Shown: positions 4,465 to 45,664 of the stretch, piece after piece
Numbering within the stretch: the first letter of the stretch is position 1
How the letters are laid out: every line of letters starts with the position of its first letter
Assembly: GCA_964529415.1 (NCBI GenBank)
Contig: CAZGWD010000013.1
Location: 29,466 to 93,465, forward strand
Direction of reading: 5' to 3'
DNA length: 64,000 bases
From: an uncultured Leptospirales bacterium
GTDB taxonomy: Bacteria; Spirochaetota; UBA4802; UBA5550
The notes under the pieces: generated by a model
The model's input: only the letters and a program-made list of their open reading frames with translations
Databases searched by the model: none
Told to the model about the DNA's origin: nothing
Translations under genes and position numbers: made by a program

Positions 4465-5142
4465 ATGAAGAATAAAGCAGTAATATTATTAAGCGGAGGG
4501 CTTGATTCAGCAACTGTTGCAGGTATAGCCATTAGCGAAGATTTTGAGCTATACGCTTTATCATTTAATTACGGGCAGAGACATGGCATTGAGCTTGAGT
4601 GTTCCGGAAAAGTTGCAGCTTTTTTTAAAATTAAAAATCATATTACAATTGATATACCGGCTGAGATTTTTAATTCAGCTCTTGTTAAAAATTCAGGTAT
4701 AGCTGTGCCGAAATCGGGCTTGGATCCTTTAAAAATTCCTTCTACGTATGTGCCTGCAAGAAATATTCTTTTTCTTTCATATGCGCTTGCTGCTGCAGAG
4801 AGTTTCGGCGCATCAGATATTTTTATCGGGGCAAATGCAGTTGATTACAGCGGGTACCCTGACTGCAGACCGGAATTTTTTACTTCTTTCGAGAATATGG
4901 CAAATATAGGAACTAAAGCTGCAATCGAAGGTAAGCCGTTTAAAATTCATACCCCAATTATTGATTTAAAAAAAGCAGAGATTATTAAAAAAGGGATTTC
5001 ACTCGGAATCGACTATTCAATAACACACAGCTGTTATGATCCGGATGCATCGGGTCTGGCCTGCGGTGCCTGCGACAGCTGCATTCTGAGAAGAAACGGA
5101 TTTGCTGATGCCGGAATTCCTGATCCGACAAAATATATATGA
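4465..5142 (+). CDS. queC: 7-cyano-7-deazaguanine synthase
   Basis: PP-loop motif LLSGGLDSAT at the N-terminus and a C-terminal Zn-binding cysteine cluster (CGACDSC), at a typical QueC length. Confidence 0.9.
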   Translation: MKNKAVILLSGGLDSATVAGIAISEDFELYALSFNYGQRHGIELECSGKVAAFFKIKNHITIDIPAEIFNSALVKNSGIAVPKSGLDPLKIPSTYVPARNILFLSYALAAAESFGASDIFIGANAVDYSGYPDCRPEFFTSFENMANIGTKAAIEGKPFKIHTPIIDLKKAEIIKKGISLGIDYSITHSCYDPDASGLACGACDSCILRRNGFADAGIPDPTKYI

Positions 5143-34859: not shown

Positions 34860-35363
34860 ATGTCAGAAGTAAAAGGGTTCAAGAAAAAAACAATTATTGC
34901 AGCAGTTGTTGTTGCTGCATGGCTGGTTGTTACATTGGTTGTTCTGGGAATATTCAATATACATCATGCATGGCCTGCATTTTTAACACTCTTGTTTTTC
35001 TTTGAAAAAGGAGGAGATGTTAAAAACCTTCCCAATATTTTTATTGGCTCTGCAGTCGGGATATTATTGGCAGCACTTGTGCCGCTGGGTGTAGGTTTTA
35101 TTTCTCCTTTCATTGGAGGTGTAACTGTTGCTACTCTTTTAATAGTTTTTATAATGGTATTTTCTATAATAGCATTGGGTGATGTTGCTCATATGTTTTT
35201 CAACAATTACGCATTCATGTATTTTACAATATGCCTGATATTCGGAAAGGAACAGATGACAGTTCAGTGGCTGATAGTTCTTGCTGCAGGCGGAGTTTTT
35301 TTTACAGGCGGAGTTCTGGTTTTTGCCAAACTGCTTGGTATGAGTACTGAAATTGAAAAATAA
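34860..35363 (+). CDS. hypothetical polytopic membrane protein
   Basis: The ORF is listed from 34824. The ATG at 34860 is preceded by AAGGAGAG and is the preferred start. The protein has 4-5 predicted TM helices. Confidence 0.4.
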   Translation: MSEVKGFKKKTIIAAVVVAAWLVVTLVVLGIFNIHHAWPAFLTLLFFFEKGGDVKNLPNIFIGSAVGILLAALVPLGVGFISPFIGGVTVATLLIVFIMVFSIIALGDVAHMFFNNYAFMYFTICLIFGKEQMTVQWLIVLAAGGVFFTGGVLVFAKLLGMSTEIEK

Positions 35364-35379
35364 TTAAGTATAGGTTTAA

Positions 35380-35412
35380 ATTGGGGGATTAAGAAACCCC
35401 CAATATATTTTC
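35380..35412 (+). terminator. rho-independent terminator
   Basis: attggggg-attaagaaa-cccccaat hairpin followed by a T-rich tail, directly after the stop at 35363. Confidence 0.7.
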
Positions 35413-35523
35413 CCCGATGTAATGCTTCGGTATCGGCCAATATAATTCATTCGATGTTTCTTCAATTATTTATTGACACCGTTTTTTTTCAATTATTCAT
35501 TATAATCTCCTGAGGGGATAATA

Positions 35524-36621
35524 ATGAATAATTCACAAACTGCTAACCGGTTGAAAAGTTTAGATGCGTTACGTGGCATTGCTGTTATCCTTATGGTGCA
35601 GCAGCATCTTGGTTACTGGCTTTGGGATATGGATAGAAAAACCGTATCCATGTATGATATGCTGCAATCACATCCTTTGTTTGTTGTATTCAACGGACTG
35701 GGAGGTATTGCTGCGCCTCTTTTTATATTTCTCGCCGGGTGCGGCACTGTTTTTTTAAAGAAAAAAAATGACAATAGTAACAGAATATTTTTTATTCGCG
35801 GAGTTGCAATCATTCTATTCGGATACATGCTTAATATTGCAGTGCCAAGCTGGTTTTCACCTGGATCATGGTATGTGCTTCATTTGATCGGATTTGCTTA
35901 TGCTCTATCACCTTTATTGCTGAAATTAAAAACGGACATTCTTGCAGTGTTGTCAGTGCTGGTTCTTGCTGTTTCAGTGATGCTGCAGTATTATTTTGAA
36001 ACACCTTTTGTTCTATCCAATGACCGCATGAGCAATTATTATTTACCCGGTGGTCTATTGAGGCTTGCCTTTTTTGAAGGCCACTTCCCTATATTTCCAT
36101 GGATGATATTTTTTCTGTCAGGAATTGCCGCTGGCAGGTGGATTACAGAAAAAAAAACAAAATATCTTTTTTATTCCGGTATCGTATGTTTTGCTTTTGC
36201 TGTTATCATTGTTACTGTTCCGAAATTTCAGGGAATTGATTATAATGTGTCTTCATTTTTTAAACGGGCTTTTTCCCTGTCATTCAATATTTATCCGGCA
36301 TTGCCGCCGCTGGTAATCGTTCTTCTGGGAATATCCTTCAGTATGACTGCGCTTTCCATTAAGATTGAGGAAGTTTTTCCTTCAATAGTTGATAACCCCC
36401 TGATTTATCTGGGACGATCGTCTCTTACTATTCTTATTGTTCACACAATTTTTTTTCGAAATTTAACCAGAACTGCCCGGCTCGCGCAGTCTTTTAACGC
36501 TGATATGACCGCTATATTGATTATAATTGTTATGTTGATATTTACTTTACTTGCGGTTATCTGGCAGAAATTCAATTATCGCTTTGGATTCGAGTGGCTC
36601 ATTAGAAAGCTTTCCAGTTGA
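35524..36621 (+). CDS. DUF1624/HGSNAT-like acyltransferase-family membrane protein
   Basis: N-terminal RLKSLDALRGIAVILMVQQH signature of the heparan-alpha-glucosaminide N-acetyltransferase-like family and about 10 TM helices. Confidence 0.65.
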   Translation: MNNSQTANRLKSLDALRGIAVILMVQQHLGYWLWDMDRKTVSMYDMLQSHPLFVVFNGLGGIAAPLFIFLAGCGTVFLKKKNDNSNRIFFIRGVAIILFGYMLNIAVPSWFSPGSWYVLHLIGFAYALSPLLLKLKTDILAVLSVLVLAVSVMLQYYFETPFVLSNDRMSNYYLPGGLLRLAFFEGHFPIFPWMIFFLSGIAAGRWITEKKTKYLFYSGIVCFAFAVIIVTVPKFQGIDYNVSSFFKRAFSLSFNIYPALPPLVIVLLGISFSMTALSIKIEEVFPSIVDNPLIYLGRSSLTILIVHTIFFRNLTRTARLAQSFNADMTAILIIIVMLIFTLLAVIWQKFNYRFGFEWLIRKLSS

Positions 36622-36810
36622 TTTTTAAACATTCGCCTTTTTTGAAATTCAATTCCAACTGTCTGGAATGCTGTGTCATTACATAAAGCTGCTTGAAATC
36701 CATTTTTTCACTTAAAATTTATGTTGTCATTGCCGAAAAATTCATTCAAAGCATCCTCAATTATTTATTGACACTATTTTTTTCAAATATTAAAATATCC
36801 GAAATAAAAT

Positions 36811-37155
36811 ATGAAAAGAGATAAACGCAGCAAAAGGGACGAAGGAGTTGTCTCCTGGCCTGGATTTTATGGTGATGATTCTTTTATAAATAGAGAAAAG
36901 AACAGGGCAAGAGAACTCAGGCAGTCTGCATGGTGGAAGAAGAAAATTTCATATGGATTATGCTACTACTGCGGCGGAAAATTTTTACCCTCGGAACTTA
37001 CCATGGATCATAAAATTCCGCTATCTAAAGGCGGAAATTCCGATAAAGAGAATATCGTTTGTGCGTGTAAAGAGTGTAATAATAAGAAGAAATATATGCT
37101 TCCTGTAGAATGGGATGAATATATGAATAAGATAAAGGGTGATGTAAATGGCTGA
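36811..37155 (+). CDS. HNH endonuclease
   Basis: CYYCGG...LTMDHKIPLSKGG...ENIVCACKECNNKK, the HNH Zn-finger/His-Asn-His core, in a 114-aa protein. Confidence 0.75.
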   Translation: MKRDKRSKRDEGVVSWPGFYGDDSFINREKNRARELRQSAWWKKKISYGLCYYCGGKFLPSELTMDHKIPLSKGGNSDKENIVCACKECNNKKKYMLPVEWDEYMNKIKGDVNG

Positions 37156-39607
37156 AAACGGAGGAGAGCTTTATAAAAAAGGCAGAGTCCTGGTAGTTCA
37201 GGGAACTGCTTCTGGCGATGTTTTCATGCTGCAGGACGGGACAATTGAAATTTTAACCGGCCCCCGGGAATATAATGGACTTGATCAGGATATAGTAATA
37301 TCAAAAAGCAGAAGAGCGGGAATTATTTCCGGAAAAACAGCACTTGTCGGATTCAGCAGAAATTTAAATGAACCATATTGCGCAACATTCAGAGCTTTAA
37401 CAGATTCAACAGTATCAAGGTATTCTTTGCGCGGCGGCGGTTTCAGAGAGCTTGCCTCATCTGATATTGGAACTGCAGTTCTTATATTGAGAAATTTATA
37501 TTCGAGACTAACCACTTCTGTTGCAGACTCTGTTAAATATGCAAAATTATACCAGAATGTCAGCAGAGTTGATGATAATATTGCGCTGATATACATGGCG
37601 CTCGGGATGCAGAAGGCATCAAGCGATCTTCATTCAACTGCAGACAGCATGCATAAACTTTATAATGCGCGCGGAGGCAGATTTCCTCAGATGTTTGATG
37701 GAAATTTTCTGGTTGCGGATAATGGAAAGTTCCTGAATAAAAAATATGAAGCACCGAAAATTACTGCTGATTCACCTGAGGGGCGCAGAAATCTCGAAAT
37801 ATTTAAAGGCATTTTGAAGCTCGATGCAGGCATACTCAAGGCAATGTTCAATTCTGATCCGACTATTGCTGCAAATATTTTCTCAGCAATGACAGATGAT
37901 TTATTGGCTGCTATTGAATCCATATCAGCAATTCTTGAATATATTGATAATGAAATGACTTCTCTGTTCGGAAGTGCAGGCAGCTGGGCCTCTTATCTTA
38001 TTGATTCGACGGGTCTTGAAGACTGGCTGTTGACCGGCAGGGTTTCGCAGGATTTTATAAGGCATGTGCTTTCAATTGTTTCAAAGATATCAGCAAACTA
38101 TGATGAACTTTCAGGTAAAAGATCAGCGGATTATTTTTCAGGAATTAAAAAACTCCAATCATATGTTCCGAGATCCAAAGAGCCTGAACGTTCTTCTGCA
38201 GGATCATCTTTTGATGAACCGGCACAGATGCGGTCTCCTGCCATACATGCTTCAGGAGACGCAGGTGCTTTAAAGCAGTCGCTTCAGCAGATTTATGAAT
38301 TTGCAGTTGTAGACAAAGAGTTTCAAACAAGGTTCAGCTCGCTTTTAAACGATTTTAAAAAGCAGGCTAATCCTCTTGCCACTGAAGATGAGCCAAGAAA
38401 GCTCAGACGTCAGATAGCCAAACTGTACTGGGATTTGTACAAGAGCGTATATCTGAGATCAAGAACTGAAAGTTCCACGCCCCGTTCTGTAAAATTCATG
38501 CTGAACTACGGGTTCCTTGACGAAACTCTTGTAGACGGCCAGATGATTGCCGAGCTTAATGAAATTACAAGAAGAAGGGAACCTGAATCAGATAATATTT
38601 TTTATGAAGAGGAATTTATTGATTTAATCTATAAGCAGATTGAAGAGCCCAGTATAACTGAAATGGGGCTGAATTACCAGGCACATTTAAGGGAAATTGA
38701 AAAAAGCACGAGTAAAAAAGACAAGCGCGTTGATAATTATGAAGATAATGTTAAACAGGTATTATATGAAATTGAACAGAGAGTTACATCAACATGCGCT
38801 GTCTGCTCAGGTTCAACTTCAACTGCTTTTCCAATACTGAATTCCATGGCAACAAAAGGCTCGCTTGTGCAGATGTACACTTCCAAAAATAAAATACATC
38901 AGGCGCTTAAAGAAATAGTGAATATTGACTACTCCGCATTCTACAGGGAAACTGTTTTAAAAATAGGTGAAGCAAGGGAAATTATACAGGAGGAAATAAT
39001 TCCATATATTATTATTCTTCCTATATCCGGATCTAAGATGCTGCTCTGGCAGGAAATGTCCGGCATTAATAAAAGAAGCAGAGGAAGAATTGTTGTTCCG
39101 GTTTTTTTCATGGGAGATTTTATGAAAAATCTTGCATATTCAATAGCATCATTCAGATGGGAGCTCAATAAAACCATTAAGGGCGGCATGTGGGCAGACC
39201 CGGTTGAGGGCGGTATATCCGGAGAATATTTTGATTATGTTAATACATATAAAAAGAACAGCAGGCTTACTCAGGAAATGAAAGAAAAAATTACTGAACG
39301 TTTCAAAAGCCTTCGAACCAACCGGGACAGATTTGCAGATGATTATCTGCAGTGGATTTTTAATGAAAAAGACGGAATAATGAAACTTAATGTTGTTGTC
39401 AGGGAAATGTTTTATAAACATGTTCCTTTCAGAAAAGAGGTCAGAGACAAACTTGAGGGTATGCCTGCTTACACTCAGATGTCATCAAGGTATAAAAATA
39501 TCAGTGCAAGAAATTATGCCGCATATGAGCGCAAATTCAAAAAATATCTGGATGCAGGCGGATATCCTGAAGAGATCCAGAATTATATGAATTTTCTGAA
39601 ATTGTAA
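37148..39607 (+). CDS. hypothetical large protein (819 aa), possible N-terminal cNMP-binding-like (CAP effector) domain
   Basis: The start overlaps the HNH stop by 8 nt. The N-terminus YKKGRVLVVQGTASGDVFMLQDGTIEIL...IISGKTALVGFSRNLNEPYCATFRALTDSTVSRY resembles the beta-roll of cyclic-nucleotide-binding domains. The rest is unrecognised. Confidence 0.5.
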   Translation: MAENGGELYKKGRVLVVQGTASGDVFMLQDGTIEILTGPREYNGLDQDIVISKSRRAGIISGKTALVGFSRNLNEPYCATFRALTDSTVSRYSLRGGGFRELASSDIGTAVLILRNLYSRLTTSVADSVKYAKLYQNVSRVDDNIALIYMALGMQKASSDLHSTADSMHKLYNARGGRFPQMFDGNFLVADNGKFLNKKYEAPKITADSPEGRRNLEIFKGILKLDAGILKAMFNSDPTIAANIFSAMTDDLLAAIESISAILEYIDNEMTSLFGSAGSWASYLIDSTGLEDWLLTGRVSQDFIRHVLSIVSKISANYDELSGKRSADYFSGIKKLQSYVPRSKEPERSSAGSSFDEPAQMRSPAIHASGDAGALKQSLQQIYEFAVVDKEFQTRFSSLLNDFKKQANPLATEDEPRKLRRQIAKLYWDLYKSVYLRSRTESSTPRSVKFMLNYGFLDETLVDGQMIAELNEITRRREPESDNIFYEEEFIDLIYKQIEEPSITEMGLNYQAHLREIEKSTSKKDKRVDNYEDNVKQVLYEIEQRVTSTCAVCSGSTSTAFPILNSMATKGSLVQMYTSKNKIHQALKEIVNIDYSAFYRETVLKIGEAREIIQEEIIPYIIILPISGSKMLLWQEMSGINKRSRGRIVVPVFFMGDFMKNLAYSIASFRWELNKTIKGGMWADPVEGGISGEYFDYVNTYKKNSRLTQEMKEKITERFKSLRTNRDRFADDYLQWIFNEKDGIMKLNVVVREMFYKHVPFRKEVRDKLEGMPAYTQMSSRYKNISARNYAAYERKFKKYLDAGGYPEEIQNYMNFLKL

Positions 39608-39616
39608 AAAAATCAC

Positions 39617-39645
39617 GTACTGGCGGAGCGTTTATCCGCCAGTAC
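39617..39645 (+). terminator. strong hairpin after the 819-aa ORF (no T-tract)
   Basis: gtactggcgga-gcgttt-atccgccagtac, an 11-bp stem, 10 nt after the stop. Confidence 0.45.
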
Positions 39646-39810
39646 ATTACTACCCGCACAACCCTTCTTCTGAATAAATGTTAATAGACTTTTTAAATAT
39701 TAATATAAAGCATGGTACATCATGCGCTGATGATTATTATGAAGAATCGAACTATTCCGGCCAACATGGTATTGATATGGTATAATTAGCCTGCTTAAAG
39801 GAGAATAATA

Positions 39811-40989
39811 ATGGATGCTTTGTTTTCAGACAGAATTTCAGATGTGCCTAAATCATTTATCCGGGAAATTCTTAAAGTGACTCTTGAAAAAGATGTCATC
39901 TCCTTTGCAGGCGGCCTTCCCAACCGTGAACTTTTTCCTGTAGAAAACCTGCGTAAAGCTACAGATAATGTTTATGCAAAAGCCGGCAGAGACGCCCTTC
40001 AATACAGCAATACTGAAGGTTATTTGGAACTCAGAAAATATATTTCAGATAAATATAAAAAACGCGGTATTGTAATTCCTGTGGAAAATATTATTATTAC
40101 TGCAGGTTCGCAGCAGGGCCTTGACCTTCTCGGAAAAGTTTTTATTAATGAAGGTGATGATATTATAATTGAGGAACCCGGGTATCTGGGTGCTATACAG
40201 GCTTTTTCAGTTTACAGAGCTTCATTTAATACTGTAAAAATTCAAAGTGACGGTCCGGACACTGATGAACTGGAAAAAATATTTTTAACCAGACAGCCCA
40301 AGCTGATCTATACAGTTCCGAATTTTCAGAATCCATCCGGATTAAGCTACTCTCCTGAAAAAAGAAAAAAAGTTTCCGAAATATTAAAAGGGAAAAAAAT
40401 ATTTCTTGTTGAAGATGATCCCTATGGTGAACTTCGTTTCTCAGGTGAGGAATCGCCCAGTTTCAAATCATTTTTACCTGACCAGACTATCCTGCTCGGA
40501 TCATTCTCAAAAACAGTTGTGCCTGGTTTCCGTCTCGGATGGATGGCAGTACCGCCGTCAATACTTGATAAAATTATTGTGGCCAAGCAGGCATCGGATC
40601 TTCATACCAACAATTTCTGCCAGAGAATTGTTTATGAATATATAACCGGATTTGATATTGAAAGCCACATCAGAAATATAGTTTCTGTGTACGGGAAGCA
40701 GCGCGATGCAATGATCCGGAGCATTGATGAATTTTTTCCTGATGGAGTAAAGCATACAGTGCCGGATGGCGGAATGTTTTTATGGGCTGAACTTCCTGAT
40801 AATATATCTTCAATGAAGCTTTTTGATATTGCAATCGGGAGGAAAGTTGCATTTGTTCCCGGAGATCCGTTTTATGTAAACAAAACAGGACCAATCAGCA
40901 CCTTGAGACTTAACTTCACATGCTCTGATGAAGAACAGATAAGAGAAGGAATAAAGCGTCTTGGTGAATCTATATCTGAATTATTATAA
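39811..40989 (+). CDS. PLP-dependent aminotransferase, class I/II
   Basis: Fold-type I aminotransferase with the PLP-lysine region SFSKTVVPGFRLGWMAVP and FLVEDDPYGEL. Confidence 0.85.
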   Translation: MDALFSDRISDVPKSFIREILKVTLEKDVISFAGGLPNRELFPVENLRKATDNVYAKAGRDALQYSNTEGYLELRKYISDKYKKRGIVIPVENIIITAGSQQGLDLLGKVFINEGDDIIIEEPGYLGAIQAFSVYRASFNTVKIQSDGPDTDELEKIFLTRQPKLIYTVPNFQNPSGLSYSPEKRKKVSEILKGKKIFLVEDDPYGELRFSGEESPSFKSFLPDQTILLGSFSKTVVPGFRLGWMAVPPSILDKIIVAKQASDLHTNNFCQRIVYEYITGFDIESHIRNIVSVYGKQRDAMIRSIDEFFPDGVKHTVPDGGMFLWAELPDNISSMKLFDIAIGRKVAFVPGDPFYVNKTGPISTLRLNFTCSDEEQIREGIKRLGESISELL

Positions 40990-41308: not shown

Positions 41309-41680
41309 ATGAAATTCCTGATTATTGACGATTCAATGGTTATACGTTCTATACATAAAAATGTGCTGAAAGACAACAACATCAATGATGCTGATATTTT
41401 TGAAGCTGAAAACGGTAATACTGCAATTGAAATCGCCCAGAAGGAGGATATAGGACTCTTCCTTGTTGACTGGAACATGCCTGGGCTAAACGGCCTGGAA
41501 TTCGTTAAAAGAGTAAGATCATGGCCGAAATATGCAGAAACTCCAATCATAATGGTCACATCAGAGGCAGCCAAGTATAATGTCATGGAAGCCATAGATG
41601 CAGGTGCCACCAACTACATTGTCAAGCCGATTCACGGCGATTTGCTGTGGAGTAAAATATCCAGATATGTTGTATCATAA
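41309..41680 (+). CDS. cheY: CheY-like single-domain response regulator
   Basis: MKFLIIDDS...LFLVDWNMPGLNGLEF...YIVKPI with all receiver hallmarks in 123 aa. Confidence 0.85.
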   Translation: MKFLIIDDSMVIRSIHKNVLKDNNINDADIFEAENGNTAIEIAQKEDIGLFLVDWNMPGLNGLEFVKRVRSWPKYAETPIIMVTSEAAKYNVMEAIDAGATNYIVKPIHGDLLWSKISRYVVS

Positions 41681-41695
41681 CCTGAGGAGCAGACT

Positions 41696-42154
41696 ATGAA
41701 AGCTGAATATATAAACCCTTTTCTTGAAGCATCAATAAATCTTTTCAGAGAGCATTTAAAGTTTGATATTAAAAATACTACCCCGTATATCAACCAGGAT
41801 TCACAGAATCTTAATGAGGTATCTGCCATAATAGGCCTTGCCGGCGATATAGCCGGTGCTGTTGTTCTCAGCTTTACGCGTGAAACCGCGATCGCAATGG
41901 CATCCCGTTTCAGCGGCCAGACGTATCATGCTCTGAGCAAGGAGGTTATTGATGCAGTTGGTGAGCTTGTGAACATCATTGCAGGCAATGCAAAGAAAGA
42001 CCTGCTTGGATTCCGTATTGAAATATCCCTTCCCGGAGTTATCACAGGAAATACATATAAAATCAACTGGCCTCATGGAGTACCGGTTATTACAATTCCA
42101 TTTGAGTCGGATGCCGGAATTTTTTCAGTTAACGTTTCATTTAAGCAGCGATGA
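41696..42154 (+). CDS. cheX: CheX/CheC-family chemotaxis phosphatase-like protein
   Basis: INPFLEASINLFREHL N-terminus and GDIAGAVVLSF...ELVNIIAGNAK, typical of CheX. It starts 16 nt after cheY. Confidence 0.7.
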   Translation: MKAEYINPFLEASINLFREHLKFDIKNTTPYINQDSQNLNEVSAIIGLAGDIAGAVVLSFTRETAIAMASRFSGQTYHALSKEVIDAVGELVNIIAGNAKKDLLGFRIEISLPGVITGNTYKINWPHGVPVITIPFESDAGIFSVNVSFKQR

Positions 42155-44196
42155 GCACCCGAAGTCAGCTCCCGAGACTCAAGTTCATTCATGTTGCAAA
42201 GGGATTTCCCCGCGACCTTGAAAAAGATTATTATGAGGATTTTTTCCGTACATCCCTGCTGATCGTCCGTGTAGCTCTTATCCTCGGCATTGCCCTTTAT
42301 TCTCTTTTCGGCATTCTCGATATCTGGGTTGTTCCCCTGAATAAAAAAGCAGTATGGATTATCAGGTATGCGGTGGTATGTCCTATGCTGGGTGCAGCAT
42401 TGCTTCTGACCTATTTCGATATTTTTAAAAAGTACATGCAGGTCACTCTGTCTGCAGTCGGTTTTTTATCCGGATTCGGTATTGTGCTCATGATCGGATT
42501 TACTGCAGAAACGGAGCTCGGTTTTAAATTTTATTATGCAGGTCTGATGCTTGTTCTCATGTGGATATACGCACTTGTACGGCTCAGGTTTATTTATGCC
42601 ACGCTAATAAGCTGGGCAATTACTGTTTCCTATGAAATTGTAGCACTCGGTATTAATAAACTCCTCAGCACTCCTGATAATGTCACGGTCTTTATCAACA
42701 ATAACTTTTTTTTCATATCAGCCAACATAATAGGCATGTTTGCAAGCTTTACTATTGAATGGTATATGAGGAAGAATTATCTTCTGAGAATGGAAATCGA
42801 GAGATCGTATAATCTCAATAGAAAATATCTTGAAAACATCAGAGAAGGTCTTCTTCTCATAGATGACAGCTACACTATTCTTAATCAGTATTCTTCTTAT
42901 CTTCCCGTAATGTTCAGCAAAAATGAAATTGAGGGAATGAACTTTATTGATCTGGTAATGCCGGACCCGGAAAACATGAAACAGGAGAGAGCTGATCTCG
43001 AAAGATTTTTAAATTTTCTTTTTCATAATAAATCTGCAGATATTGACATGATCATGGATCTTAATCCGTTTGTAAACAGGCAGATCTATGTCAGTAACGG
43101 ATCCGTTGTAAAAGAACTTATCATCAATGCAGATTTTATCCGGATTCAGGATAGGGGCAGTGTAGAATTCGTCATGGCAATATTCCAGGACATGACTGAT
43201 ATAATGAAATTTGAAAAGCAGCTGGATGATCAGAAATCAAAACACCTGCAGGAAGTCGAAACAGTCACTGCAATACTCAGGTCCGGGCCGAAACTGTTCA
43301 GCGATTTTCTTAAAGAATCAGGAGAGATTCTTGATGATATCAGATCAAAAAGCAGCGACCTCGGCAGTTCAGAAACGCTTAATCATGTTTTCAGAGAGGC
43401 GCATTCACTAAAAGGTTCGGCAAAACATCTGGAGCTGAATCATATTTCTTCTACAGCGCATGCAATTGAAGATTTAATGGCGGAAATAAGAGACAGCTCC
43501 GGTTCCAACATAGCAGGGAAAAAATCTGAAATTGACAGGCTTATATCAGATCTCTTTAAAAACTTTGATGAACTAGGAACACTCATTGAAAAAATTTCCA
43601 TGTTCTCTAATCTCGGAAAAAGCAGAGCTGCTGAAAGTACGGAAAATCCGCTTAACGATTTTATTACATCCCTATATACGATGGTAAATAATCTTGCAAA
43701 AGAACTTGATAAAGATGTTCATCTGGTTATTGACAACAAGCTTACGGATGTTCCGTTTCTTGCTAAATTAAAAAATCCTATTATACATCTTATCCGGAAT
43801 TCTCTGGATCACGGGATTGAAGATAAATTTGAGAGACTGACATCAGGAAAAAATCAGACAGGAATAGTTTCAATATCTTTAAATGAAGATGCAGAGAAAT
43901 ATTATATTGAAATTTCTGATGACGGAGCAGGAATTGATTTTGATGCTGTGCGGAAGAAGGCTGAATTATTAGGCTTGCTGCCTTCCGGAGAAAAACCTGA
44001 AAAATCAGCACTTGTGAAGCTTTTATTCACTCCGAGTTTCAGTTCAAAAAACAAGGTAACTGAAATTTCAGGAAGGGGATACGGCCTGGATATTGTCAAG
44101 GTTGCAGTTGAAAGCCTTGGCGGGCAGATATCTGTTAAATCTGCCAGGGGTAAAGGTTCCAGGCTGATTATTTCTGTACCGAAAAATAATAGTTGA
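42151..44196 (+). CDS. membrane-bound CheA-like histidine kinase (6-TM sensor + Hpt + CheA-type HATPase; no CheW/P5 domain)
   Basis: Six N-terminal TM helices. The Hpt motif is FREAHSLKGSAKHLE. The CheA-P4-like ATPase has IHLIRNSLDHGIE, ISDDGAGID and GRGYGLDIV. The protein ends right after the ATPase. It overlaps the cheX stop (ATGA). Confidence 0.7.
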   Translation: MSTRSQLPRLKFIHVAKGFPRDLEKDYYEDFFRTSLLIVRVALILGIALYSLFGILDIWVVPLNKKAVWIIRYAVVCPMLGAALLLTYFDIFKKYMQVTLSAVGFLSGFGIVLMIGFTAETELGFKFYYAGLMLVLMWIYALVRLRFIYATLISWAITVSYEIVALGINKLLSTPDNVTVFINNNFFFISANIIGMFASFTIEWYMRKNYLLRMEIERSYNLNRKYLENIREGLLLIDDSYTILNQYSSYLPVMFSKNEIEGMNFIDLVMPDPENMKQERADLERFLNFLFHNKSADIDMIMDLNPFVNRQIYVSNGSVVKELIINADFIRIQDRGSVEFVMAIFQDMTDIMKFEKQLDDQKSKHLQEVETVTAILRSGPKLFSDFLKESGEILDDIRSKSSDLGSSETLNHVFREAHSLKGSAKHLELNHISSTAHAIEDLMAEIRDSSGSNIAGKKSEIDRLISDLFKNFDELGTLIEKISMFSNLGKSRAAESTENPLNDFITSLYTMVNNLAKELDKDVHLVIDNKLTDVPFLAKLKNPIIHLIRNSLDHGIEDKFERLTSGKNQTGIVSISLNEDAEKYYIEISDDGAGIDFDAVRKKAELLGLLPSGEKPEKSALVKLLFTPSFSSKNKVTEISGRGYGLDIVKVAVESLGGQISVKSARGKGSRLIISVPKNNS

Positions 44197-44221
44197 TAAA
44201 ACTATAAAAGGCAGTGAGTGC

Positions 44222-45664
44222 ATGACTATAAATGAAGAAAAAATTACAAGTCAGATAATGAAAAATTCGATCAGGTTTTCAGGTGAACTTGAAACGCTTT
44301 TTCATGAGGATTATTTTCTTAAATCTCTCGGCTCTGTAAGAAAGGCTCTTCTGCTTGCTTTTATTCTCTACGCATCTTTTGGTTTTCTCGATCTGATGAT
44401 TACGCCGCTTAGCAGCAGTCACACCTGGATTATCCGTTATGCAATTGTATGTCCTGTAATACTTGCTGCATATATAATGACTTATTTTGAAATATATGCC
44501 AGAATATCCCAGTATGTAATAAGCGCAGTTGCTCTAACTGCAGGATTCGGTATTCTCGGAATGATTTTTTTCGCTGTAGAAAAAGAAGGCAAACTGTATT
44601 ACTACGCAGGCCTGATCCTCGTAATAATGTGGAGCTATACGCTTGTCCGCATGAGATTCAGATATTCCACAATCACAAGCTGGACCATAGTTGCAGGTTA
44701 CGAATTGATGACTGTAGTTCTGCAGAATCTTGTTTCAACGCCGGATCTATACCCGAGTTTTATTAACAATAATTTCTTTTTTATTTCATCAAATATTATT
44801 GGAATGATGGCAGGTTATTACATTGAACTTTTCAGCAGAAAGGATTTTCTACAGCGCCTCCTGATTGCTGAAAAGCAGATAAAACTGACAGATGAAAGAA
44901 ACGAACTGAGTTCAAGAATGAATATGATGAACAAAGAACTTAATATGACCAGGATAATTCAGGAGCAGCTTATTCCGCTTGAACATCCGGGGGATTTTAT
45001 ATTTTCACTGTATAAGCCGATGGAGGCAGTTGGAGGAGATTTTTTCGATTTTATAAAATTCAGGGAACCTGACATAATTGGAATTTTCCTGAGCGATGTT
45101 TCAGGACATGGCGTACCTTCTGCTCTCATTACATCTATGGTGAAGGTTACTCTTCTTGAATCCAACAGATACAAGGATGATCCTGCAAAAATTCTGGCGC
45201 ATCTTAATGATCTTCTGGTGGGAATAAGCGGAGGGCATTTTATAACAGCATTTTACGGAGTTTTCGATATGAAGGAAAAAACTCTGGTTTATTCAAATGC
45301 AGGCCATTATCCGCCAATGCTGATTAGCGGAGGTGAGATATTGAATCTTGATAAGGCGTCAACTCTTCCCCTGGCAGTTTTATCCAATGATGAATTAACA
45401 AGCGGCAGTCAGATGTTTGAAAATGCCAGAGTAAAACTTCCGGATCAAGGGAAACTCTTTCTGTTTACAGACGGGCTTGTTGAGGCGAAAAATATTTTTA
45501 ATCCCCAGAATGATTTTTCGAGCATTCTTGACGGGATTTTACTTAAAAATATAGATCTTCCGGCAAAAGAGTTCATCAACGAGCTGTATAAAGAGCTAAT
45601 TTTATATAGAGGCTCTGAAAATTTTAATGATGATATCTGCATGATTGCTCTTGATCTGAACTGA
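44222..45664 (+). CDS. SiaA-like membrane PP2C (SpoIIE-type) phosphatase with the shared 6-TM sensor domain
   Basis: The N-terminal TM domain is paralogous to 42151 (IIRYAIVCP, YYAGLILVIMWSYTLVRMRF, FINNNFFFISSNIIGM). The C-terminal PP2C has LSDVSGHGVPSALIT and LFTDGLVEA. Confidence 0.7.
   Translation: MTINEEKITSQIMKNSIRFSGELETLFHEDYFLKSLGSVRKALLLAFILYASFGFLDLMITPLSSSHTWIIRYAIVCPVILAAYIMTYFEIYARISQYVISAVALTAGFGILGMIFFAVEKEGKLYYYAGLILVIMWSYTLVRMRFRYSTITSWTIVAGYELMTVVLQNLVSTPDLYPSFINNNFFFISSNIIGMMAGYYIELFSRKDFLQRLLIAEKQIKLTDERNELSSRMNMMNKELNMTRIIQEQLIPLEHPGDFIFSLYKPMEAVGGDFFDFIKFREPDIIGIFLSDVSGHGVPSALITSMVKVTLLESNRYKDDPAKILAHLNDLLVGISGGHFITAFYGVFDMKEKTLVYSNAGHYPPMLISGGEILNLDKASTLPLAVLSNDELTSGSQMFENARVKLPDQGKLFLFTDGLVEAKNIFNPQNDFSSILDGILLKNIDLPAKEFINELYKELILYRGSENFNDDICMIALDLN

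Follow-up and report, generated by a model that had tools for sequence, protein, structure and literature searches.

The window, by which we mean the whole 64 kb stretch of DNA analysed, contains a pair of genes (36811-39607, plus strand) that looks like ordinary chromosomal housekeeping rather than anti-phage defence. We give about an even chance to the explanation that it is a vertically inherited two-gene unit of the core chromosome, consisting of an HNH nickase and a large partner, and no mobile defence module. A defence reading, put forward in the initial annotation, is unsupported. In the Leptospirales-related clade, the large protein would work together with the HNH nickase, a partnership that we infer because the adjacency of the two genes survived many rearrangements.

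The first gene (36811..37155, plus strand) is stand-alone and encodes a protein of 114 aa, predicted to be a zinc-ribbon HNH (H-N-N) endonuclease of the Gmet_0936/PDB 4H9D type. The second is a large ORF of 819 aa (37148-39607, plus strand). As already described in the initial annotation, the stop of the HNH gene overlaps the start of the large ORF. This overlap, as the sequence shows, spans 8 nt, ATGGCTGA, within which the large ORF starts with ATG (37148-37150) and the HNH gene stops with TGA (37153-37155). It forms the end of a coupling region (37136..37155, plus strand), also read from the sequence, which begins with an SD-like AGGGTGA (37136-37142) located 5 nt 5' of the large-ORF start. 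The proposed translational coupling agrees with this overlap in the window, but is not conserved among relatives, in which the genes overlap at 4 of 56 loci.

Upstream of the pair, a repeat search retrieved two copies of a 50-nt direct repeat on the plus strand, which are 82% identical to each other. Copy 1 (35444..35493) lies 5' of the acyltransferase_3 gene (35524-36621) and copy 2 (36739..36788) lies 5' of the HNH gene, in agreement with the promoter-like motif previously noted as common to both. The 18-nt core of the repeat, TCAATTATTTATTGACAC, is found at just two sites in the whole window, one per repeat copy, and one copy is also present 5' of the HNH gene in the relative L015 (96% identical). 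Copy 2 is overlapped by a putative sigma-70-like promoter, TTGACA-17 nt-TAAAAT (36768..36796, plus strand), which ends 15 nt before the HNH start codon, matches the consensus at 11 of 12 positions, and is the top consensus match across 35300-39900. Both genes would be transcribed from this promoter in the window and would be translationally coupled via the overlap. The probable end of the transcription unit is a 13-bp GC-rich hairpin (39615..39647, strand not assigned), located by a terminator scan and in the sequence 8 nt past the stop codon of the large gene. Its T-run is on the minus strand only, and its role as a plus-strand terminator is presumed.

The assignment of the HNH protein is supported by matches to Pfam HNH (PF01844; 53.3 bits, cut-off 21.4, 3e-14), to HNH_5 (PF14279; 49.4 bits, cut-off 27.5, 4e-13), and to PDB 4h9d_A (E 1.6e-35; 49/88 residues identical, 56% over 88 aa), which is Gmet_0936 (Gme HNHE) of Geobacter metallireducens. 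Residues C51/C54/C86/C89, D66-H67, N81, and N90 align with Cys38/41/73/76, D53-H54, and N77 of Gmet_0936. Judged by this alignment, both the [CxxC]2 zinc ribbon and the catalytic Asp-His...Asn...Asn (HNN) residues are shared between the two proteins. The Gmet_0936-type family comprises single-domain proteins of 92-133 aa with >50% identity to Gmet_0936 (PMC3765158), and the window protein, with 114 aa (112 aa in Gmet_0936) and 56% identity, belongs to it. In both cases the gene is stand-alone, with no methyltransferase adjoining. Unlike Gmet_0936, the window HNH originates from a Leptospirales-related spirochaete, its nicking activity is a prediction, and its gene is overlapped by, and conserved beside, an 819-aa gene.

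Gmet_0936 is a dimer that binds DNA weakly, and its nicking activity is Mn-dependent, weak, and non-specific, with a preference for acid- or heat-damaged DNA (PMC3765158). In Geobacter, RNase HI and replication-restart genes are found close by, and the describers proposed a role in DNA repair or recombination together with a partner protein (PMC3765158). The product of the first gene of the pair would likewise be a small dimeric zinc-ribbon HNH (H-N-N) DNA nickase. More than 770 relatives with 55-75% identity were found in Leptospirales, Nitrospirota, Thermodesulfatator, and others. As far as sequence comparison goes, this HNH family is highly conserved across several phyla and often stands alone; in Leptospiraceae and Thermodesulfatator it is present without the large partner gene. 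The name "McrA", carried by some of the relatives, stems from automatic annotation. An R-M/McrA-type HNH restriction enzyme was considered and rejected, as the protein (114 aa) consists of one domain and no MTase is among the neighbours.

That the two genes stay together in other genomes, a point on which the initial annotation had made its reading depend, was borne out by the relatives. All 56 evaluable loci with at least 41% identity in the large protein have the HNH gene immediately upstream of the large one, in the same orientation, and so do the loci L001-L005 and L009. The HNH gene is absent beside the large gene in all 17 evaluable loci with at most 33% identity, where the neighbours are unrelated housekeeping genes. 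In gene-order conservation, an adjacency that outlasts its surroundings at such divergence usually indicates functionally linked genes. The distance between the two genes varies widely across the 56 loci, being below 0 in 4, 0-30 nt in 15, 31-120 nt in 13, and >120 nt in 24, with spacers reaching ~360 nt. Many relatives probably transcribe the large gene separately, because a TTGTAa-N17-TATAAT element is conserved in front of it in the aligned long-spacer loci (n=12). No riboswitch was detected by Rfam in the spacers of 12 long-spacer loci.

It is possible, although we consider it rather unlikely, that this adjacency reflects neutral or regulatory synteny, in which unrelated housekeeping genes were joined once in the ancestor of the clade and have since been kept together by a common operon or promoter region. 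The long spacers and the promoter-like element before the large gene would fit such a history, as would the occurrence of each gene alone in other lineages and the lack of any HNH fusion to the large protein among 150 representatives. Moreover, the large proteins of the pair-bearing loci fall within a single identity band, a grouping by identity and not by tree, and if these loci are one clade, the adjacency could derive from a single ancestral event. Such a history is at odds with a junction that remained unbroken across 56 species-level loci despite divergence of the large protein to 41-51% identity, while the flanking junctions of the same loci changed to 16 unrelated neighbour families upstream and 19 downstream.

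The large protein begins with a sensor-like domain. Residues 7-151 (37166..37600, plus strand) form a beta-roll of the CRP/FNR-type cNMP-binding fold, followed by a long C-helix, and carry a degenerate phosphate-binding cassette. They align with CRP, FNR, NtcA, and Vfr over ~145-155 residues, and the succession of beta-roll and C-helix is that of a CRP-FNR effector domain. Of the CAP-type cNMP-binding N-terminus suggested in the initial annotation, the fold stands and the binding pocket does not. The Pfam PF00027 score of the protein is 23.3 bits, under the gathering threshold of 27.5, with a match precomputed for some of its homologues, and the pocket Glu and Arg are absent. The position of CRP E72 is hydrophobic (I/L/V/A) in the family, and at that of CRP R82, 88 of the 143 sequences have Tyr, as does the window protein (Tyr77), and 11 have His, with Arg outside the six commonest residues. 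The cassette Gly-Glu...Arg-Ser/Thr, which contacts the cyclic nucleotide, is degenerate in the 143-sequence alignment. Cyclic-nucleotide binding by the large protein is doubtful because these canonical phosphate-binding residues are missing. With the cassette Glu and Arg replaced, it is therefore most likely that the sensor binds another small ligand, as FNR, CooA, NtcA, PrfA, and CprK do, or none. The missing Glu and Arg set the protein apart from the CRP/FNR effector domains (CAP, FNR, NtcA, Vfr, CooA, PrfA) and from the eukaryotic PKA/PKG CNB domains, and make it a further case of a CRP-fold sensor without cyclic-nucleotide contacts. A Walker A motif at "SGKT" was rejected, since the motif is not conserved and sits within the beta-roll.

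The longest sequence-profile match of the family is Bd2879 (Bdellovibrio, PDB 9SFA), a CRP-like regulator with which it aligns at positions 9-228 (E 8e-10), through the first HTH region. The Arg-Ser phosphate cradle is replaced in both, by T65/S66 in Bd2879 and by Tyr-x here. Together with the alignments to CRP, FNR, NtcA, and Vfr, this could point to a CRP/FNR-family transcription factor controlling the HNH gene and other genes, yet we regard such a role as extremely unlikely. Bd2879 is a double-wHTH transcription factor of 42 kDa. In the window protein no HTH is detectable; at four times the size of CRP, it has ~670 further residues where the CRP/FNR superfamily has its wHTH output. The region after its C-helix is all-helical and wingless in the AF2 model and has no Pfam HTH, and the best-conserved part of the protein is an unrelated 450-aa C-terminal module.

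According to AF2, residues 159-340 (37622..38167, plus strand) form a poorly conserved, all-helical middle domain without a Pfam match, for which a search of PDB sequences with its own profile returned no HTH, just helical-bundle noise. It is followed by a disordered linker of variable length (residues 342-369; 38171..38254, plus strand; pLDDT <50 in both AF2 runs), which in some relatives is longer and of low complexity. The strongly conserved C-terminal module (residues 370-819; 38255..39604, plus strand) is helical, with a five-strand sheet at 599-654, and then helical again. Its invariant or near-invariant residues, among which are acidic, basic, and aromatic ones, are E541, D594, R600, E601, P619, G628, W634, Q635, and R647, as well as R670-W671-E672, D696-Y697, K703, D732-Y733, W736, E740, N748, and R752. 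No relative of this module was found in PDB sequences with its own profile. Fic/VopS matches (E 0.005-0.07) obtained with separate middle and C-terminal profiles were weak and dismissed as helical noise. These two profiles detected no DNA-binding domain, and neither a TIR nor a TM domain was found by Pfam and AF2.

Pieces of five diverse members of the family gave no match in a Pfam scan, and ~85% of the 819-aa length is without a Pfam, NCBIfam, or PDB relative. A word-indexed homologue search had recovered 12 proteins, and searching it with the 143-sequence profile added nothing new. By exhaustive profile search, the family extends to 797 clusters (50% identity) at E<=1e-3, 419 of them at E<=1e-30, and its loci in 384 GTDB species include those of the pathogen Leptospira interrogans and of gut Clostridia. 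Its members, the window protein among them, are cytoplasmic and ~800 aa long, and the family is unnamed. A first AF2 model built on 12 sequences (pLDDT 58.8, C-terminus <50) was set aside for the 143-sequence run, which gave a confident model. This makes the family a tractable "dark" family, one mostly without known relatives.

The product of the second gene would combine a CRP/FNR-like effector domain (beta-roll and dimerising C-helix), a variable helical bundle, a disordered linker, and a conserved ~450-aa module, with the degenerate sensor binding a small ligand other than cNMP, or none. Such a protein could serve as a scaffold or regulator that responds to a ligand and recruits or licenses the weakly DNA-binding nickase. 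Provided that the two products do cooperate, the large protein, whose gene is a strictly conserved neighbour in one spirochaete lineage, is a concrete candidate for the recruiting partner predicted by the describers of Gmet_0936. Speaking against a partnership are the occurrence of each gene alone elsewhere, the rarity of the overlap, the lack of fusions, and the lack of a DNA-binding domain in the large protein. A more speculative proposal, which we consider improbable, is that the ~800-aa family forms a novel class of enzymes or scaffolds gated by a ligand. Its degenerate CNB-like domain would respond to a non-cNMP metabolite or to a damage or stress signal, and the C-terminal module would dock and activate the HNH nickase in the Leptospirales clade. 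If true, this would yield the long-sought partner of the Gmet_0936-type nickases and their physiological role, namely controlled nicking of DNA in repair, recombination, or abortive defence.

The combination of a nuclease and a protein with a ligand-binding domain was what had suggested defence-system logic, i.e. an anti-phage pair similar to Pycsar or CBASS, in which detection of a cyclic nucleotide or other infection signal by the CAP-like domain of the large protein would lead it to activate the HNH. We consider this very unlikely. In PADLOC, the HNH protein gave weak matches to the PtuB, PDC-M01B, and REase models, limited to the HNH motif, and the large protein matched no family. Neither the window neighbourhood nor those of the relatives contain a cyclase, and no other signal-generating gene, CD-NTase, ATPase, or methyltransferase was found near the pair in the window. 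Pycsar effectors, for example PycTIR (PDB 8JSK/8JSJ), fuse an N-terminal cNMP-binding domain to a toxic effector and are paired with a cyclase. The window pair, in contrast, has no cyclase, TIR, TM effector, or PADLOC match, has lost the phosphate-binding residues, and has a core-genome context. It also differs from CBASS Cap5-type effectors (SAVED-HNH with a CD-NTase), with no Pfam or PADLOC match to either SAVED or CD-NTase. Closer in outline is Septu (PtuA ATPase and PtuB HNH), likewise two genes for a large and an HNH protein, and the window HNH weakly matches PtuB models (E ~1e-4, HNH motif only). Gene order and sizes are different in Septu, the large protein has no PtuA/AAA match or conserved P-loop, and the window HNH is of the Gmet_0936 family. 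Its 56% identity to this widely conserved nickase speaks against the defence reading, and the ~55-75% identity kept across phyla is unlike that of fast-evolving defence nucleases.

The genomic context paints a similar picture. The window neighbours are genes for an AMP-binding enzyme, DUF1097, acyltransferase_3, and an aminotransferase, together with CheY/CheX/kinase/SpoIIE genes. In relatives, the pair is surrounded by core genes (def-fmt, dnaE/dnaA, and a DEAD helicase, for example), without island features. The composition is native, with a GC of 0.38-0.39 and a GC3 of 0.34-0.37, against window means of 0.376 and 0.332, and shows no anomaly. Our literature search found no such defence system, nor anything on the pair or its Leptospira homologue. 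The heuristic by which a nuclease with a ligand-binding partner signifies defence is misleading at this locus.

The family was not found on plasmids or real phages. In PHROGs, the HNH protein matches generic families only; a single match of the large protein to an uncharacterised phrog (E 8e-4) was disregarded. The one "Bacteriophage sp." contig examined proved to be a fragment of a Clostridia chromosome (SpoVA, rRNA/tRNA methylase, GH3), and a phage association was rejected. A plasmid association was likewise rejected, as the matches lie on 350-394 kb replicons of L. interrogans that are listed as plasmids and, judging by their size, are probably chromosome II.

The HNH gene (36811-37155, plus strand, 114 aa) and the large gene (37148-39607, plus strand, 819 aa) both start with ATG in the ORF table. 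They are joined at ...AAAGGGTGATGTAAATGGCTGAAAAC..., where within one octamer, ATGGCTGA, the large ORF starts (37148) and the HNH ORF ends (TGA, 37153-37155), with an SD-like AGGGTGA 5 nt 5' of it. A 50-nt direct repeat (35444-35493 and 36739-36788, copies 82% identical) stands ahead of both acyltransferase_3 and HNH, neighbouring genes that are unrelated to each other, and its 18-nt core is found at just these two sites in the whole 64 kb. This repeat may have arisen by promoter duplication or may serve both genes as an operator. Copy 2 holds the region's best sigma-70-like promoter match, TTGACA-17-TAAAAT (36768-36796), while copy 1 has no well-spaced -10 box (TTGACA to TATAAT, 22 nt). Directly 3' of the large-gene stop codon lies a GC-rich, perfect 13-bp hairpin (39615-39647). 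Promoter-like site, 8-nt start/stop overlap and trailing hairpin bound a compact two-gene unit. The initial annotation, which had read the stop/start overlap and a promoter-like motif common to the acyltransferase and HNH genes, is thus confirmed in all details of the locus. Owing to an A-run upstream of the hairpin, the terminator scan assigns it to the minus strand; no minus-strand gene converges on it. Further downstream is a signalling cluster of overlapping or near-abutting ORFs (41309-45664), encoding a CheY-like receiver (41309-41680), a CheX phosphatase (41696-42154), a Hpt+HATPase_c kinase (42151-44196) and a SpoIIE/PP2C phosphatase (44222-45664).

Judged by its sequence, the first product is a Gmet_0936-type nickase. 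It scores far over the Pfam thresholds for HNH and HNH_5, its closest solved structure is 4H9D (Gmet_0936 of Geobacter metallireducens; E 1.6e-35, 49/88 residues identical), and neither its four zinc-binding cysteines nor its catalytic D-H...N...N set shows any loss. It is a new member of a known family, whose structure is solved and whose function is unassigned. Gmet_0936 is a dimer that binds DNA weakly, and its nicking is weak, Mn2+-dependent and non-sequence-specific, with a preference for acid- or heat-damaged DNA; no methyltransferase adjoins its gene, more than 50 close homologues were counted, and its authors proposed a role in DNA repair or recombination with an unidentified recruiting partner (PMC3765158). 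We retrieved more than 770 HNH relatives at ~55-75% identity from Leptospirales, Nitrospirota, Thermodesulfatator, Dissulfurispiraceae and others, a cross-phylum conservation that appears typical of a housekeeping enzyme and not of an arms-race nuclease. In one relative's locus (L025, 3677-4969), the stop-to-stop frame with the HNH domain spans 431 codons; either the frame may simply stay open far upstream, or the HNH may have extra N-terminal residues.

Both genes stay together in other genomes, as the initial annotation had asked. When the HNH-family HMM was run over the best 80 of 384 loci of the large family, an HNH gene lay immediately upstream, on the same strand, in 56/56 evaluable loci whose large protein was at least 41% identical to that of the window (six incomplete loci were left out of the count). 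At 33% identity or less, none of 17 evaluable loci had one within about 0.7-5 kb. The pattern also holds in independently fetched contigs. Within one clade the HNH-large adjacency is strictly kept, and across the entire large family there is no constant partner: distant members lie beside unrelated housekeeping genes, by eye tadA-like, YggS-like and KsgA-like genes and a response regulator, and HNH fusions were absent among 150 representatives.

In 53-54 loci, the neighbours of the pair fell into 16 unrelated sequence clusters upstream and 19 downstream, for example a DEAD-box helicase, def-fmt, dnaE upstream with dnaA downstream, a GNAT gene or a PAS-GerE regulator. Since the flanks vary and the pair is constant, the HNH-large junction has survived longer than the junctions on either side of it while identity fell to 41-51%. 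Genes whose adjacency outlives its flanks are usually linked in function. We infer with moderate confidence that in the pair-bearing clade both products work together. The large protein, probably a dimer, would act as a ligand-responsive scaffold or regulator of the nickase, a poor DNA binder by itself, and the role would be in chromosome maintenance rather than immunity. Evidence for an unusual mechanism was not found. An orphan nickase family has a candidate partner in the large protein.

Pure synteny, in which the products do no joint work, is less likely given this long-lived junction; the HNH gene does occur without the large partner, next to PEPCK in one Leptospiraceae genome and next to polysaccharide-export genes in Thermodesulfatator. 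Translational coupling, predicted for the window, is not conserved in relatives: the genes overlap in 4 loci, while 15 have a gap of 0-30 nt, 13 one of 31-120 nt and 24 one of more than 120 nt (up to about 360). A promoter-like element, TTTTTTATTGTAAAA...CCGATTATATAAT, is conserved in the 170-360-nt spacers (L042, L043, L044, L047, L051-L053, L065, L086 and other loci, at about locus positions 4620-4990), and 12 aligned long-spacer loci share TTGTAa-N17-TATAAT plus a CCGGGAG SD before the large gene. In many relatives the large gene thus probably has a transcript of its own. The leaders after the SD are variable, some with GC-rich hairpin-like stretches, and no Rfam family was found in the long spacers.

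The second product carries a CRP-fold sensor and belongs to a large unnamed family. The cNMP-binding N-terminus, tentatively proposed before, stands as a fold but not in its ligand contacts. Alone, the protein matches PF00027 below threshold (23.3 vs 27.5 bits, residues 9-103), while the profile from 143 aligned family members gives robust matches to cNMP-binding domains at positions 11-154 (PKG 1.2e-19, CAP about 1e-12). With this alignment, the AF2 model rose from pLDDT 58.8 to 93.3. In this model a beta-roll (7-93) is followed by a C-helix of 45 residues (107-151); a helical middle domain (159-340) and then a disordered linker (342-369) lead to the large C-terminal module (370-819), whose helices surround a sheet of five strands (599-654). 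When E. coli CRP was aligned to the family profile, Glu72 faced a hydrophobic column and Arg82, the phosphate-binding arginine, a Tyr column (Tyr in 88/143, then His, Ser, Phe, Cys, Leu, with Arg outside the six commonest; Tyr77 in the window's protein). The CRP fold is thus kept and the canonical cyclic-nucleotide contacts are lost. Bd2879 likewise lacks the Arg-Ser cradle. As the cassette test was negative, we do not class the protein as a functional cyclic-nucleotide-binding protein; its sensor domain is a CRP/CNB-fold variant. CRP-fold sensors for other ligands include FNR, CooA, NtcA, PrfA and CprK. That the protein is a CRP-like transcription factor, despite sharing this fold, is highly improbable: the middle-region profile met only helical-bundle noise in the PDB, and no HTH.

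For the remaining ~700 residues, Pfam on pieces of five diverse members gave no match, BFVD gave none of significance, and the C-terminal profile had none among PDB sequences at E≤10. The C-terminal 450 residues fit no described family, yet this module is the most conserved part of the protein. Invariant or near-invariant are E541, D594, R600, E601, P619, G628, W634, Q635, R647, R670-W671-E672, D696-Y697, K703, D732-Y733, W736, E740, N748 and R752, with no conserved His or Cys in the alignment. Residues of this kind suggest that the output is enzymatic or binds nucleic acid or a ligand.

A defence pair, the logic first seen in a nuclease beside a ligand-binding partner, is improbable. The large protein matched no PADLOC model (and nothing in NCBIfam), and the HNH matched the REase, PtuB and PDC-M01B models of PADLOC at motif level only. 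Around the pair in the window there is neither a cyclase or CD-NTase nor an ATPase or methyltransferase gene. Its composition is native, with GC (0.377 and 0.391) and GC3 (0.365 and 0.344) inside the window's gene distributions (0.376±0.030 and 0.332±0.047). Defining features of each of Pycsar, CBASS, Septu and R-M were looked for and absent, so the pair was assigned to none of these, and our literature search found no paper on an HNH plus cNMP-domain system. The one 'phage' match examined (L096, MT835844.1, 'UNVERIFIED: Bacteriophage sp.') was rejected as a Clostridia chromosome fragment because it carries genes for SpoVAA/AC/AD, the rRNA/tRNA methyltransferases SpoU and TrmO, and a GH3 glycosidase; it also encodes a RelA/SpoT-domain protein and an IS605 OrfB/TnpB-like gene. 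Plasmid-collection matches were L. interrogans replicons of 350-394 kb, by size probably chromosome II.

A word-indexed search with the 819-aa protein returned 12 relatives (11-12 for this family), being blind to nearly all members below about 45% identity, vs 797 clusters (50% identity) at E≤1e-3 in an exhaustive HMM profile search, 419 of them at E≤1e-30 and mostly of 750-850 aa. A sizeable 'dark' protein family now has a good AF2 model. The 384 loci represent one genome per GTDB species, and the best 80 include Leptospirales MAGs, Leptospiraceae, Leptonemataceae, Turneriella, Spirochaetaceae, Lachnospiraceae and other Clostridia. In the pathogen Leptospira interrogans, the homologue (WP_000465640.1, 707 aa, 'hypothetical protein'; NZ_CP020413.2, 107244-109367, on a 350-kb replicon) has no adjacent HNH gene and lies beside cobalamin-biosynthesis genes.
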